Positions 1-64,000 of a stretch of 64,000 nucleotides of DNA are shown piece after piece (position 1 is the first letter of the stretch; the number at the start of each line of letters is the position of its first letter). Origin of the DNA: Escherichia phage ph0011; the sequence record OP557969.1. One strand, written 5' to 3'. The notes beneath the pieces were generated by a model, which did no database searches, was not told the origin of the DNA, and saw only the letters and a program-made list of their open reading frames with translations. The position numbers were made by a program, and so were the translations under genes.

Positions 1-3278
<3,278 letters not shown>

Positions 3279-3366
3279 GTAAACCGTCAAAGGAACAATG
3301 AAGTTTCTAAGACAATTGAAGCCAATTAACAAATAACAAAGAAACCCAAAATCAAGGAAGAAATAT

Positions 3367-4425
3367 ATGAAATCTCTAGCTGAAATTCGTGCACACCTAA
3401 AAGCAGAACAAGAAAAAGCAGAAGCACAAAAGAATGGTACATTCACTGGTGAGCGTAAAGCTGATTCGTTTCTAGCTTTCTGGAACGTACCTTACAATGA
3501 ACCACTAAATCTACGTTTTCTACCAGATGCTGATGAGTCCAACCCATTCTTCTGGCGTGAACGTGACATGATTAACCTAACATTCAATGGTGTAGTCGGT
3601 ATGCACACTGATAAAGTAACCGTACAAGTACCTTGTAATGAAATGTGGGTTCCTAAATCTTGTCCGGTACTGAAAGAAGTACGTCAATGGTTCCAAAGTG
3701 CGAATGAAACAGGGAATGAAGAACTAAAAGCAATGGCAGGTCGTTACTGGAAGAAAAAAACCTATCTAATGCAATGCTTTATTGCACCAGATAGTGTTGC
3801 AGTAAAAGACGACATTGCACCAGAAAATCCAATTCGCCGTATTCTAGCTAACAAAGATATCTTTGATAAAGTTAAATCTATCCTACTAAACCCAGGTATC
3901 AAAGAATCCCCAACTCACTACGTTCAAGGTCGTGATTTTGGTATTGTTAAAACTAAGAACGGTGGTGGATATAATAGCTACGACATGTCACAATTCTCCA
4001 TGTCAGAACGTCCACTAAACGAAGAAGAACTAGCAGCAATCGAAAAATATGGTCTATTCAATCTAAATGATTTTATGCCAAAACAACCAACTCCAGAAGA
4101 GTTGAAAGCAATCGAAGAAATGTTCGAAGCATCAGTAAATGGTGAAGCATATGATCCAGCACGTTGGGCATTTGCATATCGTCCAGCGGGTGTACCAAAG
4201 CCTAACACTGGAACTACCACTGTCACTGAATCAAAACCAACTCCTGCTCCAGTACAACAAGAGTCAACACCTGCACCAGTAGCACCTACTGCTCCAGTTA
4301 CACCAGCACCACAAGCTGCTCCTGTAACCCCAGTAGCTACACCAGCAGCATCTACGACTGAAGCACCAAAAGAACAACTATCTGCATCTGCACTAGTTGC
4401 TCGTTTGAAACAACAAGGTAAGTAA
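3367..4425 (+). CDS. 32: Single-stranded DNA-binding protein (T4 gp32-like)
   Basis: RFLP motif and Cys pair (VPCNEMWVPKSCP) resembling the gp32 zinc-binding core; Pro/Ala/Thr/Val-rich repetitive C-terminal region. Confidence 0.65.
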   Translation: MKSLAEIRAHLKAEQEKAEAQKNGTFTGERKADSFLAFWNVPYNEPLNLRFLPDADESNPFFWRERDMINLTFNGVVGMHTDKVTVQVPCNEMWVPKSCPVLKEVRQWFQSANETGNEELKAMAGRYWKKKTYLMQCFIAPDSVAVKDDIAPENPIRRILANKDIFDKVKSILLNPGIKESPTHYVQGRDFGIVKTKNGGGYNSYDMSQFSMSERPLNEEELAAIEKYGLFNLNDFMPKQPTPEELKAIEEMFEASVNGEAYDPARWAFAYRPAGVPKPNTGTTTVTESKPTPAPVQQESTPAPVAPTAPVTPAPQAAPVTPVATPAASTTEAPKEQLSASALVARLKQQGK

Positions 4426-6959: not shown

Positions 6960-9539
6960 ATGAAAATTTGTAAGTTAACTTTATTGGATGAGGTGAATTG
7001 TAAATTTGAGGGACTAGATCCCTCAATTCGACAAAAGATGATTCGTGCAACTGAATATGTGCTACCATATGCAAAGTTTACACCAGCAGGTCGTATTGGG
7101 CGTTGGGATGGTAAAGTACAATTCATGAACTTAGGTGGAAGCACATACTTTCATATGCTTGATAAACTTTTACCTATTCTTGACGAAGCTAATATTGATA
7201 TTGAATTAGAAGATCATAGACTAAATTACGGTTTCGAATTTGAACCAATTGATGAAAATATTTTTAGCGATGTTGTTTTTGGTCCTGGACACCACATGGA
7301 AGGTAAAAGTATTATCCTACGTGAACATCAGGTAAATGCAGTAAATTCGTGTTTAGCTAACCCACATGGGTTGGTTCTGGCAGCAACTGGTGCAGGAAAA
7401 GCCCAGCCACTTGATGAACCAGTTCTTACCATTAATGGATGGAAACGAATGGGTGACATAAAAGTTGGCGATATAGTAAAATGTCCTGATGGAACAAATG
7501 CTCCCGTCCTTGGTGTATATCCACAGGGAATTAAACCAACAGTACGAATGACATTCTCGGATGGACGAAGTGTCGAATGTTGTGATGAACATTTATGGAA
7601 TATATATAGTATTGCTGGTGAAAAAAACCCTGAAAAACGATGGAGAAACCTTTCTGTTAAAGAAATCATTGAATTACAAAATAAACAAAAACGTCCAGTA
7701 TATATTAAAACAATCACTGGTGATATTTTTGAAGAAAAAGAATTACCAATACATCCATATATTTTAGGTGTATTACTCGGTGATGGATGTTTAAGAAATG
7801 GTAATATAATGTTATCAAGTTCAGATGAATTTGTTATTGATAAGGTATCTTCATTATTACCTGATGGTTATATTATCAAGAAAAAACAATCATCAAAATA
7901 TGATTATAGTATTGTCATGGATGATACAAAAAAGAAAGAATATTTATGTAAAAATAATAAAGAAAGATATAACGAACTTAGGGTTATTTTGGAAGAACTT
8001 GGAATTTATAATAAGTATTCATATGAAAAGTTTATCCCTGAAATTTACAAAATGTCATCAATTGAACAACGTCTGCAACTCATTCAAGGATTAATTGACA
8101 CGGATGGTTATGTTGATAAAAGATTAAAAAACGGAAAGTCCCGAAATGTGGTGGAATTTTGTAGTACATCAGAAAAATTGGTTGATGATTTGAAAGATAT
8201 AATGAATAGTTTAGGTGGTTACGGTATTAAAAAATCTAAACAAACTTATTATACCTATGCAGGGGTAAAACAAAAAGGTCGCCCAAGTTTTAAAATGAGA
8301 ATTGATTATAATAATCTTAATGCCTTGGCTAGTTTACCTCGCAAAAAAGACTTTTTATATTCAGAAAGAAATCGTGTTGAAAATAAACTAAAAATTGAAA
8401 AAATTGAATATATTGAAGATAAAGAATGTCAATGTATCTATATTGATCATCCAGAACATCTATATATTACCAGAGATTATATCGTAACACACAATACAAT
8501 TATTTGTGCTGCTTTGGCGAAATCGGTACAAAAATATGGACGTTCTGTTATCATTGTCCCCAGCACTGACCTAGTACAACAAACATATGATGATTACATT
8601 ATGTGTGGATTAGATGCTGGTATGTTCTATGGTGCACAGAAAGATTTTGGTCATCAACATACTATTACTACTTGGCAATCATTTAACTCTCTATGGAAGA
8701 AAACCAAAAAAGGTGAAATTGAATTAACAGAACAAGACGTAAATGATTTTATTGATGGGGTAGTTTGTGTTATAGTTGATGAGTGTCAAGGTGCTGGTGG
8801 TGATGCATTAGTTCAAGTACTATCTAAAGTTATGAACAACGTACCATTGCGTTGGGGTCTTACTGGTACAATTCCGAAAGATCCGGTTGTTGCAGCGAAA
8901 ATCAAATGTAATGTTGGTGATGTTATATATAAAATCACTGCAAAGGAATTACAAGATAAAAAGATACTAAGTACATGTAATGTGAATTGCATTAAACTAA
9001 AAAGTAGTATGAAGTTTGCATCATATGCTGAAGAGTTGAAATACTTAGTAACTGACAGAGATAGAATGGCATATGTAGCGTCATTGATATCTGCGTTATC
9101 TGAATCAGGAAACACTTTAGTTTTAGTAGATAGACTTGAAGCAGGTGAGTTGCTATGTGAATTTTTAGGCATTCCCAAATCAGAATTCGTTCGTGGAGAA
9201 ACTAAAAAGAAAGATCGAGAATCATCTTATGGTGAAATTCGTTGGGCTGATAATAAAATACTTATTGCGACATACGGCGTTGCCAGTACTGGTATCAGTA
9301 TTTCAAGGCTATACAATGTAGTATTGATTGAACCTGGAAAAAGTTTCGTAAGAACTATACAATCAATCGGACGTGGATTACGCCGTGCTGAAGACAAAGA
9401 CCATGTTGAAATATATGACATTAGTGGTTCTAATAAGTATAGTGCAAAGCATTTACGTGAGCGTCTCGCTTACTATAAGGAAGCACAATATCCTCATACA
9501 GTAATAGACGTTAAAGATTGGGAAAACACAGCGGGATAA
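6960..9539 (+). CDS. uvsW: UvsW-like SF2 helicase interrupted by an in-frame intein
   Basis: Extein motifs: Walker A ATGAGK|T split by the intein, DECQ box, GLTGT, QSIGRGLRR (motif VI). Confidence 0.7.
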   Translation: MKICKLTLLDEVNCKFEGLDPSIRQKMIRATEYVLPYAKFTPAGRIGRWDGKVQFMNLGGSTYFHMLDKLLPILDEANIDIELEDHRLNYGFEFEPIDENIFSDVVFGPGHHMEGKSIILREHQVNAVNSCLANPHGLVLAATGAGKAQPLDEPVLTINGWKRMGDIKVGDIVKCPDGTNAPVLGVYPQGIKPTVRMTFSDGRSVECCDEHLWNIYSIAGEKNPEKRWRNLSVKEIIELQNKQKRPVYIKTITGDIFEEKELPIHPYILGVLLGDGCLRNGNIMLSSSDEFVIDKVSSLLPDGYIIKKKQSSKYDYSIVMDDTKKKEYLCKNNKERYNELRVILEELGIYNKYSYEKFIPEIYKMSSIEQRLQLIQGLIDTDGYVDKRLKNGKSRNVVEFCSTSEKLVDDLKDIMNSLGGYGIKKSKQTYYTYAGVKQKGRPSFKMRIDYNNLNALASLPRKKDFLYSERNRVENKLKIEKIEYIEDKECQCIYIDHPEHLYITRDYIVTHNTIICAALAKSVQKYGRSVIIVPSTDLVQQTYDDYIMCGLDAGMFYGAQKDFGHQHTITTWQSFNSLWKKTKKGEIELTEQDVNDFIDGVVCVIVDECQGAGGDALVQVLSKVMNNVPLRWGLTGTIPKDPVVAAKIKCNVGDVIYKITAKELQDKKILSTCNVNCIKLKSSMKFASYAEELKYLVTDRDRMAYVASLISALSESGNTLVLVDRLEAGELLCEFLGIPKSEFVRGETKKKDRESSYGEIRWADNKILIATYGVASTGISISRLYNVVLIEPGKSFVRTIQSIGRGLRRAEDKDHVEIYDISGSNKYSAKHLRERLAYYKEAQYPHTVIDVKDWENTAG
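7401..8495 (+). mobile_element. Intein (365 aa) with LAGLIDADG homing-endonuclease domain inside the helicase P-loop
   Basis: Begins right after GAGK; LAGLIDADG-like LLGDGCL and LIDTDGYVD; ends IVTHN (N at 8493-8495) followed by extein T; length is a multiple of 3. Confidence 0.75.
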
Positions 9540-19089: not shown

Positions 19090-19760
19090 ATTACGAATAT
19101 GATCAACAATCCGTTAATCAGATGGCAGATTTATTAAGTGGTCTTAATGATATTGAAGCTGGTGAAACACATAATGCCGCAGGTGTTCCATATAAAGCAA
19201 GTGGTGATATTGGTGCAATGACTGCAATTTTAACTTCATTAAATGAAGCTGGAATGGATTACGGTACTGATCCAGAGAAGATTCATCCGAACGTTGTGCC
19301 ATACAATGCACCATTCAATGAACACATGAATGGACAACAATCTACCATTCAGCCATATAGTCAACCATCTAAGCCGAAAACTAATTGGAGCTTAGTAGAA
19401 GAAAAAGTTCAAGGAACTAAATCTACCAAAGTGTATAGTATCAAGTGTAATCATAGTTCACAGATTATTATGAATAATATTATGATGTATGAAGCTGCAC
19501 TTACATTAGTTAATCTTTTGAATGAAGGACGAATGTTGACAGATGCAAAACTCCTTGGTATAATTAGTTCTGGATTACAATACACAAATGTAATCAGTGA
19601 GGCATTAAAAGCTGCTCAAAGGCGACAACGTGTTCTTAATGAATCAAAGTATGATGAAGCAAAAGAATTAGATATAATTATTGCAGAAAAGAAAGCAGAA
19701 GCTTATAAATTGAAAGAGCGTGTATTGAACTTTCTTAAAAATGAAGGGTATATTACCTGA
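19086..19760 (+). CDS. Hypothetical protein (224 aa)
   Basis: ORF with ATGA overlap. Confidence 0.5.
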   Translation: MNYEYDQQSVNQMADLLSGLNDIEAGETHNAAGVPYKASGDIGAMTAILTSLNEAGMDYGTDPEKIHPNVVPYNAPFNEHMNGQQSTIQPYSQPSKPKTNWSLVEEKVQGTKSTKVYSIKCNHSSQIIMNNIMMYEAALTLVNLLNEGRMLTDAKLLGIISSGLQYTNVISEALKAAQRRQRVLNESKYDEAKELDIIIAEKKAEAYKLKERVLNFLKNEGYIT

Positions 19761-21508
19761 TGTTAGATGAATTGAAGAAATTCTTAAAAAGCAAAAACAA
19801 AAAAACATGGGTTAAGTTGGTAAACAATAATGAATTATATTTTAAATATGTTCGTGAATTGTTCCCAACTAAACCAATGAATGAAGCATTGTATCTTATC
19901 ATGAATGACATGGTGCGTGCACCATCTGCCCCATGTGGTTCTGAATGTAAATTTATTAATGGTTCATATGATAAGTATTGTTCTAAGCCTACAAAACCAA
20001 ACAAAAATCGTGATAATGGGTTTTGTGTAGTATGTAATGAGCATTGGAAGCAAAACAAACTCAAAAATACTAAACAAAAATGTCTTGATGTTTATGGTGT
20101 CGAACATCATTGGCAAAGAAATGATGTAAAAGATAAAATAAAAAGTACTAATATGAAACGATATGGTGTTGAACACAATTCACACGTCGAACATGTACTT
20201 GAAAAAAGAAAGGAAACTTTCATTGAAAGATATGGTGTTGAATCACCGTTATCATCTGTTGAAATTCGTGATAAGATAAAAGCAACAAACATTGCAAAAT
20301 ATGGTGTTGAAAATTATGGAAGTACATGTGAATGTATCGAAAAACGAAATAAAACAATGCAAGAATTATATGGTTTTAGTAATGCACAACATGTAAAGAA
20401 GTTTTCAAATGAATCAAAGATTACTAAATCTAAAATAAGATATGATAAAATTTTATCTATTATTAACCCTTCATATAAAGAACTGTTTGAATATGATGAC
20501 TTGATAGATTCAACCAATGAAAGTAAACTTCCGTACTATTGTGAAATACACAAAGGACTGTTTTATAGTAATTATAAATATGGTATAGTTTGTGATGTTT
20601 GCAACCCACCTGTATATAGTTCAATACAAAATGAAATAAAAAACTTTGTATCAACATTGACTGAATGTAACATTATCATGAATGATAGAAGTAATGGGTA
20701 TGAGTATGATATATACATCCCTGAACTTCAGATAGCAATAGAAGTCAATGGAATGTATTGGCATAAAAGTGATATGGTTGATAAGTATTACCATAGAACA
20801 AAAACAATAAATTCGATAGAACGTGGGATTAGATTGATACATATCTTTGAAGATGAATGGTACTGTAAACAGGAAATTATTAAAAATAGATTAATGAATG
20901 TTTTTCAGTGTTCTAGAAAGATTTATGCCAGAAAATGTATTGTTAAAAAAATTAACACTAATATTTGTTATGATTTCTTAAACACTAATCATATACAAGG
21001 ATATACTAAATCTGGAATAAACTATGGTTTGTTTTATAATCAAGAATTGATTGCAGTAATGACGTTCGGAAAAAGTCGATATGATAAAAAATTTGAATAT
21101 GAACTAATACGATACTGCTCACGTGGAACTGTTGTTGGTGGTGCTAGTAAATTATTGTCTGCATTTGAGCGTGAATACAAACCATTGTCGTTGATGAGTT
21201 ACGCTGACTTGAATTGGGGGTCAGGACAGTTATACATATCTCTTAACTTTGAAAATTTAGGATACACAGAACCCAAATATTTTTATTATGATCCAAAAAC
21301 AAAACAGCGTTTTTCTAGACATAAATTTAGAAAACATAAATTAATTGAAATGGGCTACGACTCATCTAAAACTGAAGAAGATATATGCTTAGGTGAAATT
21401 GGATTGTATAAAATATACGATTCTGGTAATTGCAAATTTGCTAAATATTATTACAACACAAACATTACAGGAGATATTGAAAAATGTCCAAATCGTACAA
21501 AAAACTAA
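19760..21508 (+). CDS. Putative free-standing homing-endonuclease-like protein: zinc ribbon, four tandem KYGVE repeats, endonuclease-like core, unknown C-terminal domain
   Basis: Repeats VYGVEHHW / KRYGVEHNSHVEHV / ERYGVESPLSSVEIRDKIKATN / AKYGVENYG; core YEYDIYIPELQIAIEVNGMYWH resembles a Vsr/DUF559-type PD-(D/E)xK motif; Cys cluster near N-terminus. Confidence 0.5.
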   Translation: MLDELKKFLKSKNKKTWVKLVNNNELYFKYVRELFPTKPMNEALYLIMNDMVRAPSAPCGSECKFINGSYDKYCSKPTKPNKNRDNGFCVVCNEHWKQNKLKNTKQKCLDVYGVEHHWQRNDVKDKIKSTNMKRYGVEHNSHVEHVLEKRKETFIERYGVESPLSSVEIRDKIKATNIAKYGVENYGSTCECIEKRNKTMQELYGFSNAQHVKKFSNESKITKSKIRYDKILSIINPSYKELFEYDDLIDSTNESKLPYYCEIHKGLFYSNYKYGIVCDVCNPPVYSSIQNEIKNFVSTLTECNIIMNDRSNGYEYDIYIPELQIAIEVNGMYWHKSDMVDKYYHRTKTINSIERGIRLIHIFEDEWYCKQEIIKNRLMNVFQCSRKIYARKCIVKKINTNICYDFLNTNHIQGYTKSGINYGLFYNQELIAVMTFGKSRYDKKFEYELIRYCSRGTVVGGASKLLSAFEREYKPLSLMSYADLNWGSGQLYISLNFENLGYTEPKYFYYDPKTKQRFSRHKFRKHKLIEMGYDSSKTEEDICLGEIGLYKIYDSGNCKFAKYYYNTNITGDIEKCPNRTKN

Positions 21509-57295: not shown

Positions 57296-57566
57296 ATGTT
57301 GGGTATGTTGTAAGCATTTCGATGAAGAATATGATATTTCTTTGGATGTATACCATCAGCAATACATGATATCATCGGGAAAATATAAACTAGATACCTT
57401 CCCAACTCCTAAGTATATGGGGATTTGTCCATTGTGTAATGGGAATGGTGTATTAGACATTGTTATTGAATTCACAAATACACAAACTACTGATTGTGTT
57501 GCCGCATATATAAGAGATAATCTTGATTTTTTCACTAGGAGATTATATGAACGAGAAAATATTTAA
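57288..57566 (+). CDS. Hypothetical Cys-rich small protein (92 aa)
   Basis: CWVCCKHF ... CPLCNGNG. Confidence 0.45.
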   Translation: MTKCWVCCKHFDEEYDISLDVYHQQYMISSGKYKLDTFPTPKYMGICPLCNGNGVLDIVIEFTNTQTTDCVAAYIRDNLDFFTRRLYERENI

Positions 57567-57783
57567 TTCATATAATATGGAAGATTTACTAATACCATCC
57601 GAGAACAGTACTGTTAAGATGCAAATGTATTGGTTAGTAAAAGATGGTAAAGTATTTCAACACAAAGTTACAAAAGTATGGCAATGTAACAAAAACAAGT
57701 CAATAGTTGATACACTAGCAACTGCATTTCCAGGGGTGGAGGTTGTATTTTTACCAGTTGCTTATATTAAGGAAATAAAATGA
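57547..57783 (+). CDS. Hypothetical protein
   Basis: ATG at 57547 preceded by GGAG. Confidence 0.45.
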   Translation: MNEKIFNSYNMEDLLIPSENSTVKMQMYWLVKDGKVFQHKVTKVWQCNKNKSIVDTLATAFPGVEVVFLPVAYIKEIK

Positions 57784-57947
57784 AAAAAACATGGACAATA
57801 TTCGTAATACCTATTATAATGTTGTTATTGGTAATCACGGTTCCACAAGTATACGTTGTTGCTTTGAATGTGGTGGAAATTATTCTTCTTGTAATTCATT
57901 GCCTTGTGTGTTATTACTACGTAAAATGGGATGATAAAAAAATATGA
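57780..57947 (+). CDS. Small membrane protein (55 aa) absent from the ORF track
   Basis: ATGA overlaps at both ends link it to the neighbours; hydrophobic core IFVIPIIMLLLVITVPQVYVVALNVVEIILLVI. Confidence 0.4.
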   Translation: MKKTWTIFVIPIIMLLLVITVPQVYVVALNVVEIILLVIHCLVCYYYVKWDDKKI

Positions 57948-58366
57948 AGTACTATCGAATTCGAGTTGGTGTAAGCTCAGGTTTTAGTAATTGGGTATAT
58001 TATGATTTGCCTGATAGCTATACCGTAGAAGATGTAATTAACTTATATTATGAAGAAGAGACATGGGTACTCAGTACTGAAACACATAGTGTAGTGTGTG
58101 AAGAGCTATGTGCCGAAGATTACAAGCACTGTGTCCAAGCAATGAAGTATTACAGTAAAGAAGTGAAGATGTTATCTGAAAACATTTTTCCGGTAAAAGA
58201 ATGGGCAATTTTACTTGCAAATCCTAACAAACCTGTTAGAATTGGTTATCCAAACAATCATATGGTTTATCGAATGAATAACAAACGTGAGCTAAGTTAT
58301 CAGTATGATTACAGTGCTTCTAAGTTTGGAGTTCTACCACAATTTAAAAAGGCTTATCCAGTATGA
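57944..58366 (+). CDS. Hypothetical protein (140 aa)
   Basis: ORF. Confidence 0.5.
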   Translation: MKYYRIRVGVSSGFSNWVYYDLPDSYTVEDVINLYYEEETWVLSTETHSVVCEELCAEDYKHCVQAMKYYSKEVKMLSENIFPVKEWAILLANPNKPVRIGYPNNHMVYRMNNKRELSYQYDYSASKFGVLPQFKKAYPV

Positions 58367-58698
58367 GCAATGACAGCAAAGAATTTATAGTACGTTGTAG
58401 TTGTGGTGATAATACTGAACATTGTATTCACATTGCACAATATGACTTGACACAAGAAGATGGAGATGGTAAACTTGGTCAATGTTTGGTGAGTATGCGT
58501 TTGAATCCTTTCTTAAAATGGCACAAACGTATATTGGTTGGGTTGAAGTATATTTTCGGTGTAAACGATTTTCAATACAAAGAAGCAATGATTGATGTTG
58601 ACATTCTGAAAGAAGTTGTGTTACAATTAGAAGACACCCGTCCCGATGAGGTAAAGAAAGAAGAAAGAGATAAACGTAGTGATGTGAAGGTTTTATGA
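58363..58698 (+). CDS. Hypothetical protein (111 aa)
   Basis: ORF. Confidence 0.5.
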   Translation: MSNDSKEFIVRCSCGDNTEHCIHIAQYDLTQEDGDGKLGQCLVSMRLNPFLKWHKRILVGLKYIFGVNDFQYKEAMIDVDILKEVVLQLEDTRPDEVKKEERDKRSDVKVL

Positions 58699-58889
58699 GT
58701 ACTGAACTTTATGAAAAAAAGTACTGTACAAATTGCTCAACTGAGTATACAATACAAGGTATGTTAATTTGTACAATATGTAAGTCAAAAGAATCAGCTA
58801 CATTCATAGTTGATGATAGATTTAGTGATTTAAAACAGTTTAAAGCAAACCGCAATCTTCGTATTTTTAGCAATCTAAATAAGGAATAA
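58695..58889 (+). CDS. Small zinc-ribbon protein (64 aa)
   Basis: CTNCSTEY ... CTICKS (C-x2-C ... C-x2-C). Confidence 0.45.
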   Translation: MSTELYEKKYCTNCSTEYTIQGMLICTICKSKESATFIVDDRFSDLKQFKANRNLRIFSNLNKE

Positions 58890-58895
58890 CATTTT

Positions 58896-59324
58896 ATGAA
58901 TATCGAACAAATCATCCGTAATCATTCTTTCTTCGCCCCAGAGACTGGTCGTGTAATTGAGAATGTCAAAATCGAAGAACTTATGGTGAATGTTAAATAC
59001 AAAGAACCAAATGATGAGATTAGTAGCACTTTTTGTGCACTTCGTGCACCATTCCGCAATGAAAAAGCAAAAAAACCAGCATATGTTCTTGCAATTGCTT
59101 TAGGATGTGTTGTTAAACTTGCAGTTGATGAAAATATTATTAATATCAAAGTCGCCCCTACCAATGACGAAGAAAACATTGATTTGAACTTTGATGGTAA
59201 TCTCGACGAAGATGTATTTTTTCAACAGTCACTTGTTTATGACTTCCGTACCGTGACATATTCACATATTAACTTCGTCAATGAAATGGTTGATATTGTA
59301 GCCAAATATGAAGAATCTCTATAA
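58896..59324 (+). CDS. Member of FQxSL paralog family
   Basis: C-terminal DEDVFFQQSLVYDFRTVTYSHINFV shared with the genes at 60538-62643. Confidence 0.55.
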   Translation: MNIEQIIRNHSFFAPETGRVIENVKIEELMVNVKYKEPNDEISSTFCALRAPFRNEKAKKPAYVLAIALGCVVKLAVDENIINIKVAPTNDEENIDLNFDGNLDEDVFFQQSLVYDFRTVTYSHINFVNEMVDIVAKYEESL

Positions 59325-59334
59325 TTAAATCATA

Positions 59335-59360
59335 AAAGCCTCCATGTTGGAGGCTTTTCT
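59335..59360 (+). terminator. Rho-independent terminator
   Basis: agcctcca-tgt-tggaggct followed by tttct. Confidence 0.6.
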
Positions 59361-59381
59361 CACATAAGGAAATGAAGAAAT

Positions 59382-59933
59382 ATGATTGAACAAATTAATA
59401 TTCTCACACAACAAATTACCGACTTTCTCTCAGATAAAGAAGGTTTCAAAACTGAAGTGAAAATGCACGGCGTTAGTCTTGATGTAATTTCACCAGATGG
59501 AAATGTTACAAATTATGATATGTACGAATTGTTTCTTTACACTTTAGCAGTACGTAAACTAGGAAGTGACATTGAACTAAACATTAACACTGATAGTGAT
59601 GGAAATAAAATTTTTGCAATCAATACAAGTGCTAAGTATGATGTTAGTGCAGAAATTAAAAAAATTAACGATAGCTTTGTTGGTTTCACCCATGATTCAA
59701 TTCAAGGTGTTTTTGTAGGTAAACAAACTTCATCAAGTCAATGTCCATTTTGTATTATGACTTTATATAAAAATGGTGATTGGATGCGACAAGACTTGGT
59801 ATATGCTGAAATGTTGTATGCATTTACACATGGTCTAGAAATTGAATTAGATGATAGTGCTTTTTGCTTTAAGAAAATCCGAAAACTCACAAATGATATT
59901 CAAAAGCAACTTAAAGAATTAAATGATAAATAA
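59382..59933 (+). CDS. Hypothetical protein (183 aa)
   Basis: ORF with AAGGAA RBS. Confidence 0.5.
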   Translation: MIEQINILTQQITDFLSDKEGFKTEVKMHGVSLDVISPDGNVTNYDMYELFLYTLAVRKLGSDIELNINTDSDGNKIFAINTSAKYDVSAEIKKINDSFVGFTHDSIQGVFVGKQTSSSQCPFCIMTLYKNGDWMRQDLVYAEMLYAFTHGLEIELDDSAFCFKKIRKLTNDIQKQLKELNDK

Positions 59934-60042
59934 ATGTACCAGAAGTGGTTAACATATCATGTTATTTTCCTCCCTTACATAATAATGATGCGTTATTAGA
60001 TTTTCATTTTATTATTTCTTTTTTGTACAAAATCATATTAGT

Positions 60043-60068
60043 ACTGCCCCGTATATCGGGGCATTTTA
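60043..60068 (+). terminator. Rho-independent terminator
   Basis: tgccccg-tatat-cggggca followed by tttta. Confidence 0.55.
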
Positions 60069-60090
60069 TTATCTAAAATATGGTGATTTT

Positions 60091-60482
60091 ATGAAAAACA
60101 TTGGCTCTTCTATACAAAAAGACCTTTCATTTTACCTTAATAAATTCAGAAGTATAAATGGTAATAAATTTAATAGTATCTATCAGTTCACACATAAAGA
60201 ATATATTACTATTGATCCCTTTTCAAAAAACTGATGTATGTTAATGATAATAATTATAGTGTTAAATTATCATTCGATATTGTGTTGGATAAATTAACAT
60301 TTACGGAATACACTACCAATAAAACTTCATTTTTACACAAGTATAATAGAAAGGTATATAATCATATTTCTAGTTATTTAAATGAAGAATATTACTTTCA
60401 ACAATCTACAATAGAAAAAGTATTATTCAGTACTGAAGAATTAAAAGAATTATATTATTGGTATGAGAAATTTACATCTTGA
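60091..60482 (+). CDS. Possible split or frameshifted member of the FQxSL family (47-aa ORF 60091..60234 plus 82-aa ORF 60234..60482)
   Basis: Two adjacent ORFs in different frames joined by TGATG; the downstream part carries EYYFQQSTIEKVL. Confidence 0.35.
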
Positions 60483-60537
60483 CATTATGGTGGTTTCATC
60501 TTACAATACAAGATAATGATGCGTTGAGGACAAATTC

Positions 60538-60948
60538 ATGAGTATAGATTTACACAATGAACTACAATATTTTTTTGATTTGGATATATCACGTTTGAAC
60601 AGACATGTCAATCATATATCCAGAACTATATGGTGGTCTGATGAGGCTGATGAACCAAGGATTCAGATTTGTGATAATTTGTCAGTTTTAAGATTGTATG
60701 TTCTTGATACCGAAATGAATATTATGATAACATACGTACCACCCACAAACAAACTTCTAATCAACACACTAAACCCAGATACAGTACTGAAAATTTTTGA
60801 TTTGGATACGATACAGTCAAGCGAAACACTATTCCAACGTTCATTGGTTGATGATCTAGGGGGTATTTCTTTTGACGATATATTAAAATTGAAGAAGATG
60901 TATAATGAATTATTAGAGATTAAAAATACCGTTCTAATGGGGATTTAA
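60538..60948 (+). CDS. FQxSL paralog family member
   Basis: SETLFQRSLVDDLGGISFDDI. Confidence 0.55.
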   Translation: MSIDLHNELQYFFDLDISRLNRHVNHISRTIWWSDEADEPRIQICDNLSVLRLYVLDTEMNIMITYVPPTNKLLINTLNPDTVLKIFDLDTIQSSETLFQRSLVDDLGGISFDDILKLKKMYNELLEIKNTVLMGI

Positions 60949-60949
60949 T

Positions 60950-61354
60950 ATGGTAAGTTTATTAGATATTGATAATACTAGTCTGGTTCTGGTGAAAAAA
61001 GGATTAATTCCAAATTCTAACAAGATTGATTATGCTGTTATTGAAACAAATATTGGGAATATCTGGTACGACTCTGAAAGAGACATTGTGTTTAGCTGTG
61101 TAGATAGTGATCGTTCTGAGTGCTGTAGGGTTGGGCATGACGGACAATTTATTTTCGAATTTCGTTTCTGGAAAGATTCCAGATTTCACCAGGAGCATGT
61201 TTCAATTACAAATGTAAATTGTAATGAAGAATCATTCTTCATGGAAAGTACTATTAATGATTTTGGCTCAGTTACTTTTGAGTACTATAAAAAAGTATAT
61301 AACTTGTACAGAGAAGTAATTCGAATCATAAGAACCTCTGAGGGTCAAGATTAA
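60950..61354 (+). CDS. FQxSL paralog family member (variant motif)
   Basis: NEESFFMESTINDFGSVTFEYY. Confidence 0.5.
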   Translation: MVSLLDIDNTSLVLVKKGLIPNSNKIDYAVIETNIGNIWYDSERDIVFSCVDSDRSECCRVGHDGQFIFEFRFWKDSRFHQEHVSITNVNCNEESFFMESTINDFGSVTFEYYKKVYNLYREVIRIIRTSEGQD

Positions 61355-61355
61355 T

Positions 61356-61733
61356 ATGACTACTACCATATATAATATTTTAGGTAACTTGAATAAAAAC
61401 ATAGATAATGATTTTGTTATAGTTGAAAACACTAAAAATATAATTCATCTACCATTGGGTACACCAGATAGGTTAATTTTTAACATATACGCTAACACAC
61501 TGACATACATACACGATGGTATGGTTATCGTTGTGCTTGATATTAAAGAAAATACAATACGATATGCATATGACTTTAACGTTTATTGGTCAAGAACTCA
61601 TAGTATTGATATTGAGGAAGATGAACTTTTTCAATTATCGTTAATTGAGAAAAATGTAATAGGAGTTACCGAGATTGGTATTGTTAAAAAAGCTTTGGAA
61701 TATGCAAATAAAAAAATAAATGGCGAACTATGA
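61356..61733 (+). CDS. FQxSL paralog family member
   Basis: EEDELFQLSLIEKNVIGVTEI. Confidence 0.5.
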   Translation: MTTTIYNILGNLNKNIDNDFVIVENTKNIIHLPLGTPDRLIFNIYANTLTYIHDGMVIVVLDIKENTIRYAYDFNVYWSRTHSIDIEEDELFQLSLIEKNVIGVTEIGIVKKALEYANKKINGEL

Positions 61734-62194
61734 TGAACATTGAGGAAATAAAAAATCATTTTGAAATTGCATTGTCTTGTGATTTTGATAGTTGTTATGT
61801 TACTGAACCAGAAGATATAATTAGAATTTCCACATCGTTTTCAGAAGAATACAATATACTCATTGAGAAATCATATGACAGAACCGAACTCTCATTTTAC
61901 AATAAGGATTTACGAACAACATCATTTATATTATTATATAACACAACATCGGATATAATAGAGATTATAACAAGTAAAACAGGTAAAACAAGTAAAGATG
62001 TACATTATGAGACTATACCAAATGTAAGTTATTGTTCAACAGAAGAAGGATACTTCCAGGAATCACTTATTAAAAATTTATCAGTTAGCTATTCTGATTT
62101 AAGCATTATAGTCAATTATGTGGAAAAGTTAAATGATTTCGTTCTATCGATGTTTGATATCACTGAGCAAAAACCAAAGGAAATCAAATGTTAA
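61730..62194 (+). CDS. FQxSL paralog family member
   Basis: TEEGYFQESLIKNLSVSYSDL. Confidence 0.5.
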   Translation: MMNIEEIKNHFEIALSCDFDSCYVTEPEDIIRISTSFSEEYNILIEKSYDRTELSFYNKDLRTTSFILLYNTTSDIIEIITSKTGKTSKDVHYETIPNVSYCSTEEGYFQESLIKNLSVSYSDLSIIVNYVEKLNDFVLSMFDITEQKPKEIKC

Positions 62195-62643
62195 ATCCTG
62201 GACATTTTTTTCATTTACTGGACATTACACCTATACCCGATTTGATCAGCGAGACTAATCATTATCGTGATATTGGAATTGTATCAATGGAATATGATTC
62301 ACCTGACTTTAAATGTTACGTAACATACGATCAGGTGGCTTATGAGTCAGAGCCTGAGATTAAAAAACCATCATATATTTTTGTGTTCATATATAATGAT
62401 TATAGTGGTGATGTACTGAATGATGTTCATATTGACACATTTGAAATATGTGGTAATATTATATCAGATGATTCAGCATCCACATTTGATTTGGAATTAA
62501 ACAGTACTGAAGAGTCACTTTTTCAGTTGAGTACTATATGTGATACTATATTAACTCTAGATGACATTGAGAAATTTAAAGAACAGCTTGACGCAGTTCG
62601 TGAGATGTTCTATAATCATTATCCAGAAGTAGAGTTCAATTAA
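62188..62643 (+). CDS. FQxSL paralog family member
   Basis: TEESLFQLSTICDTILTLDDI. Confidence 0.5.
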   Translation: MLNPGHFFHLLDITPIPDLISETNHYRDIGIVSMEYDSPDFKCYVTYDQVAYESEPEIKKPSYIFVFIYNDYSGDVLNDVHIDTFEICGNIISDDSASTFDLELNSTEESLFQLSTICDTILTLDDIEKFKEQLDAVREMFYNHYPEVEFN

Positions 62644-62657
62644 CTAAAGGTAATAAA

Positions 62658-62918
62658 ATGACAAAAGTAGTTCGTAAACGCCACATGATGAATATGGATG
62701 AATTTCGTACATTTGACAAATATCGTACTATGTTTCGTATGCTGTCACAGGGTCGCCCAATCGTCATTGTAACAGAGAATTACATGTCACCTGAGATTAT
62801 GTTTGGTAATTACGAAAAGGTCTTCATGTTGTACGTGAAGCGTGGATTGCTTACAATCAAGACATTAGCTGAAGCAACTGATGATGATATGGATGGAGAT
62901 AATACCTTTACCATGTGA
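62658..62918 (+). CDS. Hypothetical protein (86 aa)
   Basis: ORF. Confidence 0.45.
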   Translation: MTKVVRKRHMMNMDEFRTFDKYRTMFRMLSQGRPIVIVTENYMSPEIMFGNYEKVFMLYVKRGLLTIKTLAEATDDDMDGDNTFTM

Positions 62919-63300: not shown

Positions 63301-64000
63301 ATGAAACCTATCCGAGTACTATCTCTTTTTAATGGAATGAGTGTAGGATACATGGCATTAAAAGATGCTGGTATCCCTGTTGAAAAATATTATTCATCCG
63401 AAATTGACAAATTTGCTATAGCTGAATCCCAAGCTAACTTCCCCGATATAATCCAATTGGGTGATGTAACTAAGTGGAGAGAATGGGATATTGAATGGGA
63501 CAAGATAGATCTACTGATGGGTGGTTTTCCATGCTTCCCAGCAGGAACTATGATAATGACAAATAAAGGTCATAAAGATATAAAAGATATAAAAATTGGT
63601 GATATGGTTCTTACACACACTGGACAGTACCAAAAAGTATTGAGTACTGGTGTTAAAAAGGCTCCCACTCGTATTATTACGGGTCAAGGTCACCTTCCAA
63701 TTGAATGTACCGATAATCATCCATTTTGGAGTAGGGAACGTCTAGCCAATAAATGGAATAATCAACGCCGAAGATATGATTCTGTGTTTTCTGAACCGCA
63801 ATGGGTAAATGCTATAGATCTTACTAAACAAAGTTATATTTGTAATGTTAAAAATATTACACATAATACTGTAAGTGATAAAGATGAAAAATATTGGTAT
63901 TTTGTTGGTCGTTTTATGGGTGATGGATGTGCTAGTGTATCTAATAACAAATACAGTATTACTATTGTAGATTCATTAGATAAAGTTGATGAATTGAAAA
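63301..64000 (+). CDS. DNA (cytosine-5) methyltransferase, N-terminal part, interrupted by an intein; 3'-truncated at window edge
   Basis: Motif I region VLSLFNGMSVGYMAL and motif IV GGFP-C parallel M.HhaI (FIDLFAGLGG ... ILCAGFPCQ); frame open to nt 64000. Confidence 0.6.
   Translation, partial: MKPIRVLSLFNGMSVGYMALKDAGIPVEKYYSSEIDKFAIAESQANFPDIIQLGDVTKWREWDIEWDKIDLLMGGFPCFPAGTMIMTNKGHKDIKDIKIGDMVLTHTGQYQKVLSTGVKKAPTRIITGQGHLPIECTDNHPFWSRERLANKWNNQRRRYDSVFSEPQWVNAIDLTKQSYICNVKNITHNTVSDKDEKYWYFVGRFMGDGCASVSNNKYSITIVDSLDKVDELK
63532..64000 (+). mobile_element. Intein N-terminal part with LAGLIDADG motif inserted at the methyltransferase Pro-Cys motif; continues beyond the window
   Basis: Begins CFPAGTMIMTNKGHKDIKDIKIGDMVL (intein block A-like); LAGLIDADG-like FVGRFMGDGC near 63900. 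Confidence 0.6.

Follow-up and report, generated by a model that had tools for sequence, protein, structure and literature searches.

The stretch of DNA analysed here, which we call the window, comprises 64,000 nt of Escherichia phage ph0011; it is AT-rich (33.6% G+C), and its plus-strand genes are closely packed. At the locus described below, a gene read in two pieces lies between a strongly conserved block and a tight array of small genes, and a 13-mer occurs once in the block and once in the predicted leader of the array. The features are as follows.

59907..59995, plus strand: ultra-conserved block, made up of the last codons of gene 59382-59933 and intergenic DNA, and holding the first copy of the 13-mer
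59982..59994, plus strand: first copy of the 13-mer ATAATGATGCGTT, exact match
60045..60070, plus strand: intrinsic-terminator-like hairpin, TGCCCCG-loop-CGGGGCA with a T-rich tail, found by the scan with 7 pairs, 6 of them G-C
60091..60234, plus strand: N-terminal fragment (47 aa) of a broken ortholog of 121Q gp83 (phrog_33313), ending at a TGA created by the frameshift
60225..60230, plus strand: A6 tract, where all near-identical relatives have A7; together with the C after it, a zero-frame A_AAA_AAC (60225..60231) that runs directly into TGA
60234..60482, plus strand: C-terminal fragment (82 aa) of the same gene, in the -1 frame
60479..60507, plus strand: predicted sigma-70-type promoter of the downstream gene array, TTGACA-N17-TACAAT, matching the consensus at 11/12 positions
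60513..60525, plus strand: second copy of the 13-mer, within the predicted 5' leader of gene 60538-60948, after the -10 hexamer and before the Shine-Dalgarno sequence GAGGA (60526-60530)
60538..62643, plus strand: tight array of five genes (136, 134, 125, 154 and 151 aa) with a C-terminal EExxFQxS(L/T)I as in the split gene

A search with positions 59300-62700 matched 33 phage records, all of them Escherichia or Salmonella jumbo phages of the 121Q/PBECO4 group (Asteriusvirus, Rak2-like). Since nucleotide identity to these records is just 81-83% at the locus, and reaches up to 93% to phage records in a different part of the window, we consider the lineage of the window to be, by sequence comparison, related to the phages in the phage collection but separate from them. 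Over the window as a whole, phages in the GenBank phage set of August 2025 reach only about 81-93% identity to the lineage. Other public assemblies (ENA, Logan, NCBI) commonly contain it; the neighbouring 136-aa protein occurs there in exact form on 23 contigs, and the lineage is also seen in numerous metagenome and run assemblies, as well as in two genome assemblies at NCBI, JBLGDS010000004.1 (GCA_047444555.1) and ABQUSV010000014.1 (GCA_037431425.1). The comparisons suggest that the lineage may represent a fairly widespread, undescribed Asteriusvirus-like species. Its close relatives are nine contigs from the ENA, Logan and NCBI assemblies (L005-L013), which are 98.1-99.9% identical to the window. 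The sister genomes compared at the locus are those of fEgEco12, 121Q, UE-S1 and G17, and the comparison further takes in UB, CMSTMSU, L024, JNE01 and A4.

Several other places in the window deserve mention. At its end (approximately 63302-64000, running off the end) the calls made in relatives are of a DNA methylase with Hint and LAGLIDADG (intein) domains. The corresponding call in contig L005 is much shorter, at 286 aa, and the alignment of that contig to the window ends at 63525, which together suggest that presence or absence of the intein is polymorphic here. LAGLIDADG matches also fall on a terminase and a helicase at the start of the window (79-1854 and 6960-9539). Within the open reading frame at 19760-21508, the sequence ATATGGTGTTGAA occurs three times between 20160 and 20311 at a spacing of 69 nt, forming a tandem repeat of 23 codons; the ortholog of this protein carries a DUF7487 domain.

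The interrupted gene

The two open reading frames at 60091-60234 (47 aa) and 60234-60482 (82 aa) occupy different frames, as the preliminary description had it, the second lying in the -1 frame. They overlap by a single base, the ATG of the second resting on the TGA of the first (TGATG). The further claim that the two together equal one family-sized protein also holds: with one A restored, they become a protein of 130 aa that matches phrog_33313 end to end, with residues 2-130 aligned on profile positions 3-131 of 131 (E 3.4e-63). This repaired protein is 100% identical to a protein from other assemblies, P0001, which is found on 7 contigs, and 71-78% identical to 121Q gp83 (AIT13980.1) and its orthologs. 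The orthologs in 121Q, fEgEco12, UE-S1 and G17 are each a single CDS of 131 aa. Gene order is collinear with the annotated genomes of these four phages, the gene lying between the orthologs of gp81 and gp84, and the order of gp84-88 is conserved. On these grounds we identify the gene, from its sequence and position, as a ~130-aa ortholog of Escherichia phage 121Q gp83. It shares with the gp83 group the same gp81/gp84 position and a profile match over 129 of the 131 positions. It differs in that the frame of the group is unbroken, whereas that of the window is broken at 60232-60234 by one lost A, and in that the window belongs to a separate lineage, with ~83% nucleotide identity at the locus.

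The position of the lost base is well defined. When the DNA is aligned to the sister genomes, the window needs one gap, of 1 nt, and this falls precisely on the A tract. The junction reads TCAAAAAACTG (A6) in the window, TCAAAAAAACTG (A7) in contigs L005-L013 and TCAAAGAAACTA in 121Q; in the alignment, 121Q has TCAAAGAAACTAATG and fEgEco12 has TCAAATAAACTTATG where the window has TCAAA-AAACTGATG. The sister species carry AAAGAAA or AAATAAA at the tract, in frame. All nine of the near-identical contigs have TCAAAAAAACTGATG, that is, A7 with one more A at the junction, and each has a called and intact 130-aa gene, so that the earlier reading of a frameshifted copy is borne out. Once the A is restored, the gene of the window is base for base that of L006, L008, L012 and L013. 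Over the 4.6 kb from 57539 to 62163, compared in 10 sequences, the missing A is the sole allele private to the window, which has zero private substitutions there. Searches for either the A6 or the A7 junction pattern gave no match in the viral, genome and metagenome contig collections, which appear not to contain this lineage.

Two open reading frames that meet in this way could also be two genuine genes, translationally coupled through the overlapping UGAUG. Phage genes are commonly coupled through overlaps of the TGATG type, a genuine ATG codon stands at 60234 and corresponds to an internal Met conserved in the intact orthologs, and annotated products of 82 and 83 aa that start from this Met exist in two relatives, one of them phage UB and the other a metagenome contig of 250 kb. 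The loci of these two apparently split relatives, however, both hold an intact ORF of 131 aa, and UB is the same as 121Q across the junction; the 82/83-aa products are therefore short-start gene calls from the internal Met and reflect choices of start site. Neither a true split nor the stop codon occurs in any of the relatives compared. The small frames are thus not conserved as separate genes in relatives, and neither fragment is on record as a gene product, the large assembly collection having no call for either. There is also no Shine-Dalgarno sequence before 60234. The AlphaFold model of the intact protein (pLDDT 70, pTM 0.65) consists of a helix, a sheet of 6-7 strands and a C-terminal helix, and residue 47 falls between two strands of that sheet. 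Since the break thus falls inside a predicted beta-sheet, neither fragment is a domain. A coupled pair of genes is contradicted by the comparative data and is, in our judgement, extremely improbable; the two frames are a single disrupted gene.

We note that short-start calls such as these (L022 1233-1481, phage UB, AXC36679.1; L024 1501-1752, P0010) imitate the split seen in the window, and that calls of this kind in relatives, here phage UB and one metagenome contig, are able to mimic a split gene. The opposite artefact is seen in P0006 (181 aa), a call that joins the upstream intergenic region in frame to the gene.

The relation of the split gene to its neighbours is less firm than its orthology to gp83. 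The C-terminal motif EExxFQxS(L/T)I, shared by the split gene and the downstream array, is also found in gene 58896-59324. When profiles of the gp83 orthologs were set against profiles of the neighbours with hhalign, the probability was 76.8% and the E value 2.1e-5 over 84 columns, a result driven by the C-terminal motif. PHROG searches gave no cross-matches between the split-gene protein and its neighbours. Homology is, at the level of sequence, supported only moderately. The PHROGs matched by the split gene and by the array are all of unknown function; a Pfam search with the split-gene protein gave nothing above the cut-off, fold searches with it yielded no assignable function, and only 8 cluster representatives were found among 1.84 billion proteins. 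Inside gene 60538-60948, the first of the array, an exact 15-mer, TTTTTGATTTGGATA, occurs at 60572-60586 and 60794-60808, 222 nt apart, and codes for FFDLDI and IFDLDT, a hint that part of the protein is duplicated within it.

Noncoding elements and the 13-mer pair

The block at 59907-59995 stands out from its surroundings. In five diverged genomes 83-93% of its columns are invariant, as compared with ~55% in flanking coding DNA. It contains the invariant sequence TTCCTCCCTT and a -10-like hexamer, CATAAT, at 59978-59983, which varies among relatives as CATAAT, TATAAT or TACAAT. An ATAAATA motif is found at the stop codon that precedes the block. The block occurs once in the window and is single-copy per genome in 36 Asteriusvirus-like phage records. 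Some 50 nt downstream, between the block and the split gene, lies the terminator hairpin, the stem of which is conserved in 9/9 aligned relatives and which is an annotated terminator in UE-S1 and G17. A search of the whole window against Rfam returned nothing at gathering thresholds, and the only sub-threshold, sRNA-like matches fell around this terminator.

Three more specific readings of the conserved stretch were considered and set aside. A promoter of the form cTTACA-N17-TAGATT (59974-60002), with the 13-mer as its spacer, is rejected because its -10 hexamer is lost in JNE01 and its -35 hexamer in A4. An RNA hairpin at 59950-59995, with the 13-mer as the 3' arm and the loop UUUCCUCCCUUAC, is unsupported: A4 shows one compensatory change and three broken pairs, JNE01 has two pairs broken, and covariation support is absent. 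A small ORF at 59945-60076, annotated as gp82 in 121Q, is rejected as coding because indels of one and three bases change its frame in fEgEco12, L024 and G17 and the nucleotides are still conserved. The block could act as a regulatory site in the DNA, or it could encode a small RNA. The value of a transcript map of this locus would lie here, in the conserved block, and not in the 13-mer repeat.

Downstream of the split gene, the promoter predicted at 60479 ranks among the top three sigma-70 matches within 5 kb, and its -35 hexamer shares bases with the codon that ends the split gene. Both TTGACA and TA[C/A]A[A/C]T are kept in 18/18 loci inspected, while the neighbouring bases drift. In the Rak2-like phage CBB, RpoD-like promoters have been predicted ahead of runs of short hypothetical early genes (PMC5259590). 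The window fits this picture in that its TTGACA-N17-TACAAT stands directly before a run of short hypothetical genes, the promoter being an in silico prediction only. A region of small genes with a sigma-70-type promoter suggests early expression, and we suggest that the region of the split gene is expressed early. In a different part of the window, the intergenic stretch 3200-3370, upstream of a gene for a single-strand DNA-binding protein, is near-invariant between the window and PBECO4 and includes TTGACA and a -10 element of the CTATAAT type.

The 13-mer links these two noncoding contexts, at least by its letters. That an exact 13-mer is present twice proved correct: ATAATGATGCGTT occurs on the plus strand of the window twice and only twice, each copy lying 3 nt from where it had first been placed. 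CTTACA does precede both copies, at 59974-59979 and 60500-60505, but at distances of 2 nt and 7 nt, respectively. The second copy is indeed just upstream of the family member at 60538, 12 nt from its ATG, and starts 6 nt past the -10 hexamer of the 60479 promoter.

The preliminary description took this pair to be the scar of a recombination or duplication. It is true that the exact 13-mers are 531 nt apart, that both are intergenic and follow CTTACA and a -10-like hexamer, and that ungapped similarity around them amounts to 70% over 40 nt, a value a little higher than random AT-rich DNA would give, so that the two upstream regions may conceivably share a remote ancestor. Close 13-mer pairs are also more numerous in the window than in simulation (16 observed against 2.9 simulated), most of them belonging to paralogs and tandem repeats. 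Yet second-order Markov simulations yield ~2.9 exact direct 13-mer pairs within 600 nt per window, so that about three such pairs are to be expected by chance, and near-matches are not in excess, with 3 matches at up to two mismatches in the window against 3.6 expected. The 13-mer itself is of low complexity, with a trinucleotide period (ATA-ATG-ATG).

The placement and history of the two copies argue further against a scar, or against a regulatory site shared by the two ends of the gene. The copies sit at non-equivalent sites, 96 nt and 12 nt upstream of start codons, and beyond the 13-mers themselves there is just the 70% over an ungapped 40 nt. The first copy is invariant in the window, fEgEco12, 121Q, G17, CMSTMSU and L024, has one change in UE-S1, and is altered in the more distant JNE01 and A4. 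The second is exact solely in the lineage of the window (10 contigs); in fEgEco12, 121Q, G17, UB and UE-S1 it is substituted or carries a 3-nt deletion, and L024 has nothing similar. Nowhere in the locus is conservation lower than in the leader around it (27-30% invariant columns), and as the first copy lies in the most conserved stretch, the two copies are under opposite constraint. The frameshift, finally, is a single-base poly(A) contraction ~240 nt and ~290 nt away from the 13-mers, a point event unconnected to either copy.

We conclude that the 13-mer pair is a coincidental match between unrelated noncoding contexts, a conserved block on the one hand and a fast-drifting mRNA leader on the other, perhaps helped by the fact that both copies follow -10-like hexamers (CATAAT and TACAAT). 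A recombination or duplication junction, or a shared regulatory site bounding the gene, is very unlikely, and the 13-mer should not be taken as a mark of recombination.

Translation across the junction and origin of the missing base

If the A6 tract is real, translation would yield the 47-aa N-terminal fragment; some of the 82-aa fragment might arise by reinitiation at the overlapping UGAUG, and incidental -1 slippage on A_AAA_AAC would supply a trace of the full-length protein at most. In E. coli, heptamers without stimulators promote frameshifting at just 2-10 times a background of ~0.055% (PMC4066793), and any rescue of the gene by such slippage would therefore be incidental and well below 1%.

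A stronger role has to be weighed for this heptamer, namely programmed -1 frameshifting at 60225-60231, before the UGA, giving the 47-aa and full-length products in a set ratio as in IS1 insA-insB'. The sequence is a canonical heptamer in the zero frame and conforms to X_XXY_YYZ; a stop codon follows it directly, and the second open reading frame lies in the -1 frame and is open from 60198. Moreover, A_AAA_AAC is proven in IS1, where no stimulator is established (PMC4066793). The two-frame layout, however, is not conserved. The tract is A7, in frame and with the same flanks, in nine near-identical contigs, and AAAGAAA or AAATAAA, again in frame, in the sister species. Nor do the surroundings offer a stimulator: the fold of 60224-60330 has an energy of -13.3 kcal/mol (z -0.21 against shuffles), indicating no downstream structure, and the 20 nt upstream, read by eye, contain no Shine-Dalgarno-like element. 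We regard a programmed site as highly improbable. There is somewhat more, though still only a slight chance, for a joint proposal that a real A6 tract serves as a slippage-prone switch or dimmer of an early gene, with the off allele present in part of the population, and that this off allele is partly restored by -1 ribosomal slippage at A_AAA_AAC, which would make it a newborn, unfixed recoding site.

As to how the tract came about, a synonymous AAG-to-AAA change of a Lys codon in the lineage of the window (TCA AAG AAA to TCA AAA AAA) created the A7 run. Runs of this kind gain or lose a base when a polymerase slips, be it in the phage itself or while the DNA is sequenced and the consensus built. 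It is very likely that we are dealing with a homopolymer contraction private to one sequence in one gene, together with a coincidental 13-mer, whichever origin the deletion had; and with either origin the split would be neither a conserved gene pair nor an evolved recoding site.

The two origins are closely matched. The consensus may have under-called the homopolymer by one base, the true genome having A7 and an intact gene. A deletion in a 7-base homopolymer is a classic site of consensus error, the missing A is the sole private difference in 4.6 kb and is accompanied by no private substitution, the gene is otherwise the same as in four relatives, and it is intact in all other genomes, which implies purifying selection. 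On the other side, the assembly is otherwise clean. The window contains 47 runs of at least 7 bases and 144 runs of at least 6, and the long ORFs listed across it (up to 859 aa) do not suggest frequent frameshifts; a platform that often miscalled A7 would be expected to leave several more of them. The other homopolymer differences examined are intergenic or gene-end polymorphisms, or are common to other genomes.

These differences come from a comparison of indels over ~47 kb of the window against L015, L016-L019, L006 and L008, with 20.5-39.5 kb falling outside the near-identical comparison. Every indel in the ~47 kb compared is a change in the length of an A/T homopolymer or AT repeat. Among those compared in detail, the only one that interrupts a gene in its middle is that at 60225, and several others are private to a relative. 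The other indels, at 3165, 3240, 46304, 51613, 52857, 52917 and 57936, are changes of one or two bases in A/T runs or AT repeats and, where checked, are intergenic or at gene ends. This pattern suggests that slippage is the main indel process in the lineage and that mid-gene events are removed by selection. For the coding-end difference at 3165, the window agrees with PBECO4, and that allele is therefore not an error of the window. An error-ridden assembly is unsupported in the regions compared: the intergenic and gene-end placement of the indels, the agreement with PBECO4 at 3165 and the long ORFs are together not what an assembly of that kind would look like, and one residual homopolymer error is compatible with all of them.

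We therefore treat a consensus error as a serious possibility that falls a little short of an even chance. Our preferred reading, to which we give about an even chance, is that slippage has very recently produced a genuine mutation in one isolate or population, by which a dispensable gene is inactivated; a real mutation is, by our estimate, slightly more likely than a consensus error. If reads show A7, a single 130-aa gene is the right annotation. The finding is an ordinary one, a one-base homopolymer contraction in a hypothetical gene and a chance repeat, and its value is mainly for annotation, where two ORFs become one disrupted gene, and little for biology.

Comparison with known systems

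Three known systems offer points of comparison. The insA-insB' site of IS1 and that of the window both place A_AAA_AAC in the zero frame ahead of an ORF in the -1 frame, and for neither is a stimulatory structure known (PMC4066793); this shared anatomy, a phased heptamer and then a stop, makes some functional rescue possible by analogy. The IS1 site, however, is conserved and required, whereas that of the window is present in one sequence, where it replaces the in-frame A7 of 99.9%-identical relatives.

Phase-variable contingency loci resemble the window in that one base gained or lost in a mononucleotide run turns a gene off. In contrast to such loci, the tract here is short, and recurrent switching is not evident, with one off allele seen against at least 17 intact alleles. 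No feature sets the case of the window apart from the ordinary class of homopolymer-tract frameshifts, whether slippage pseudogenes or consensus errors, with which it shares a one-base change in an A7 run, identical flanks and an indel private to one sequence.
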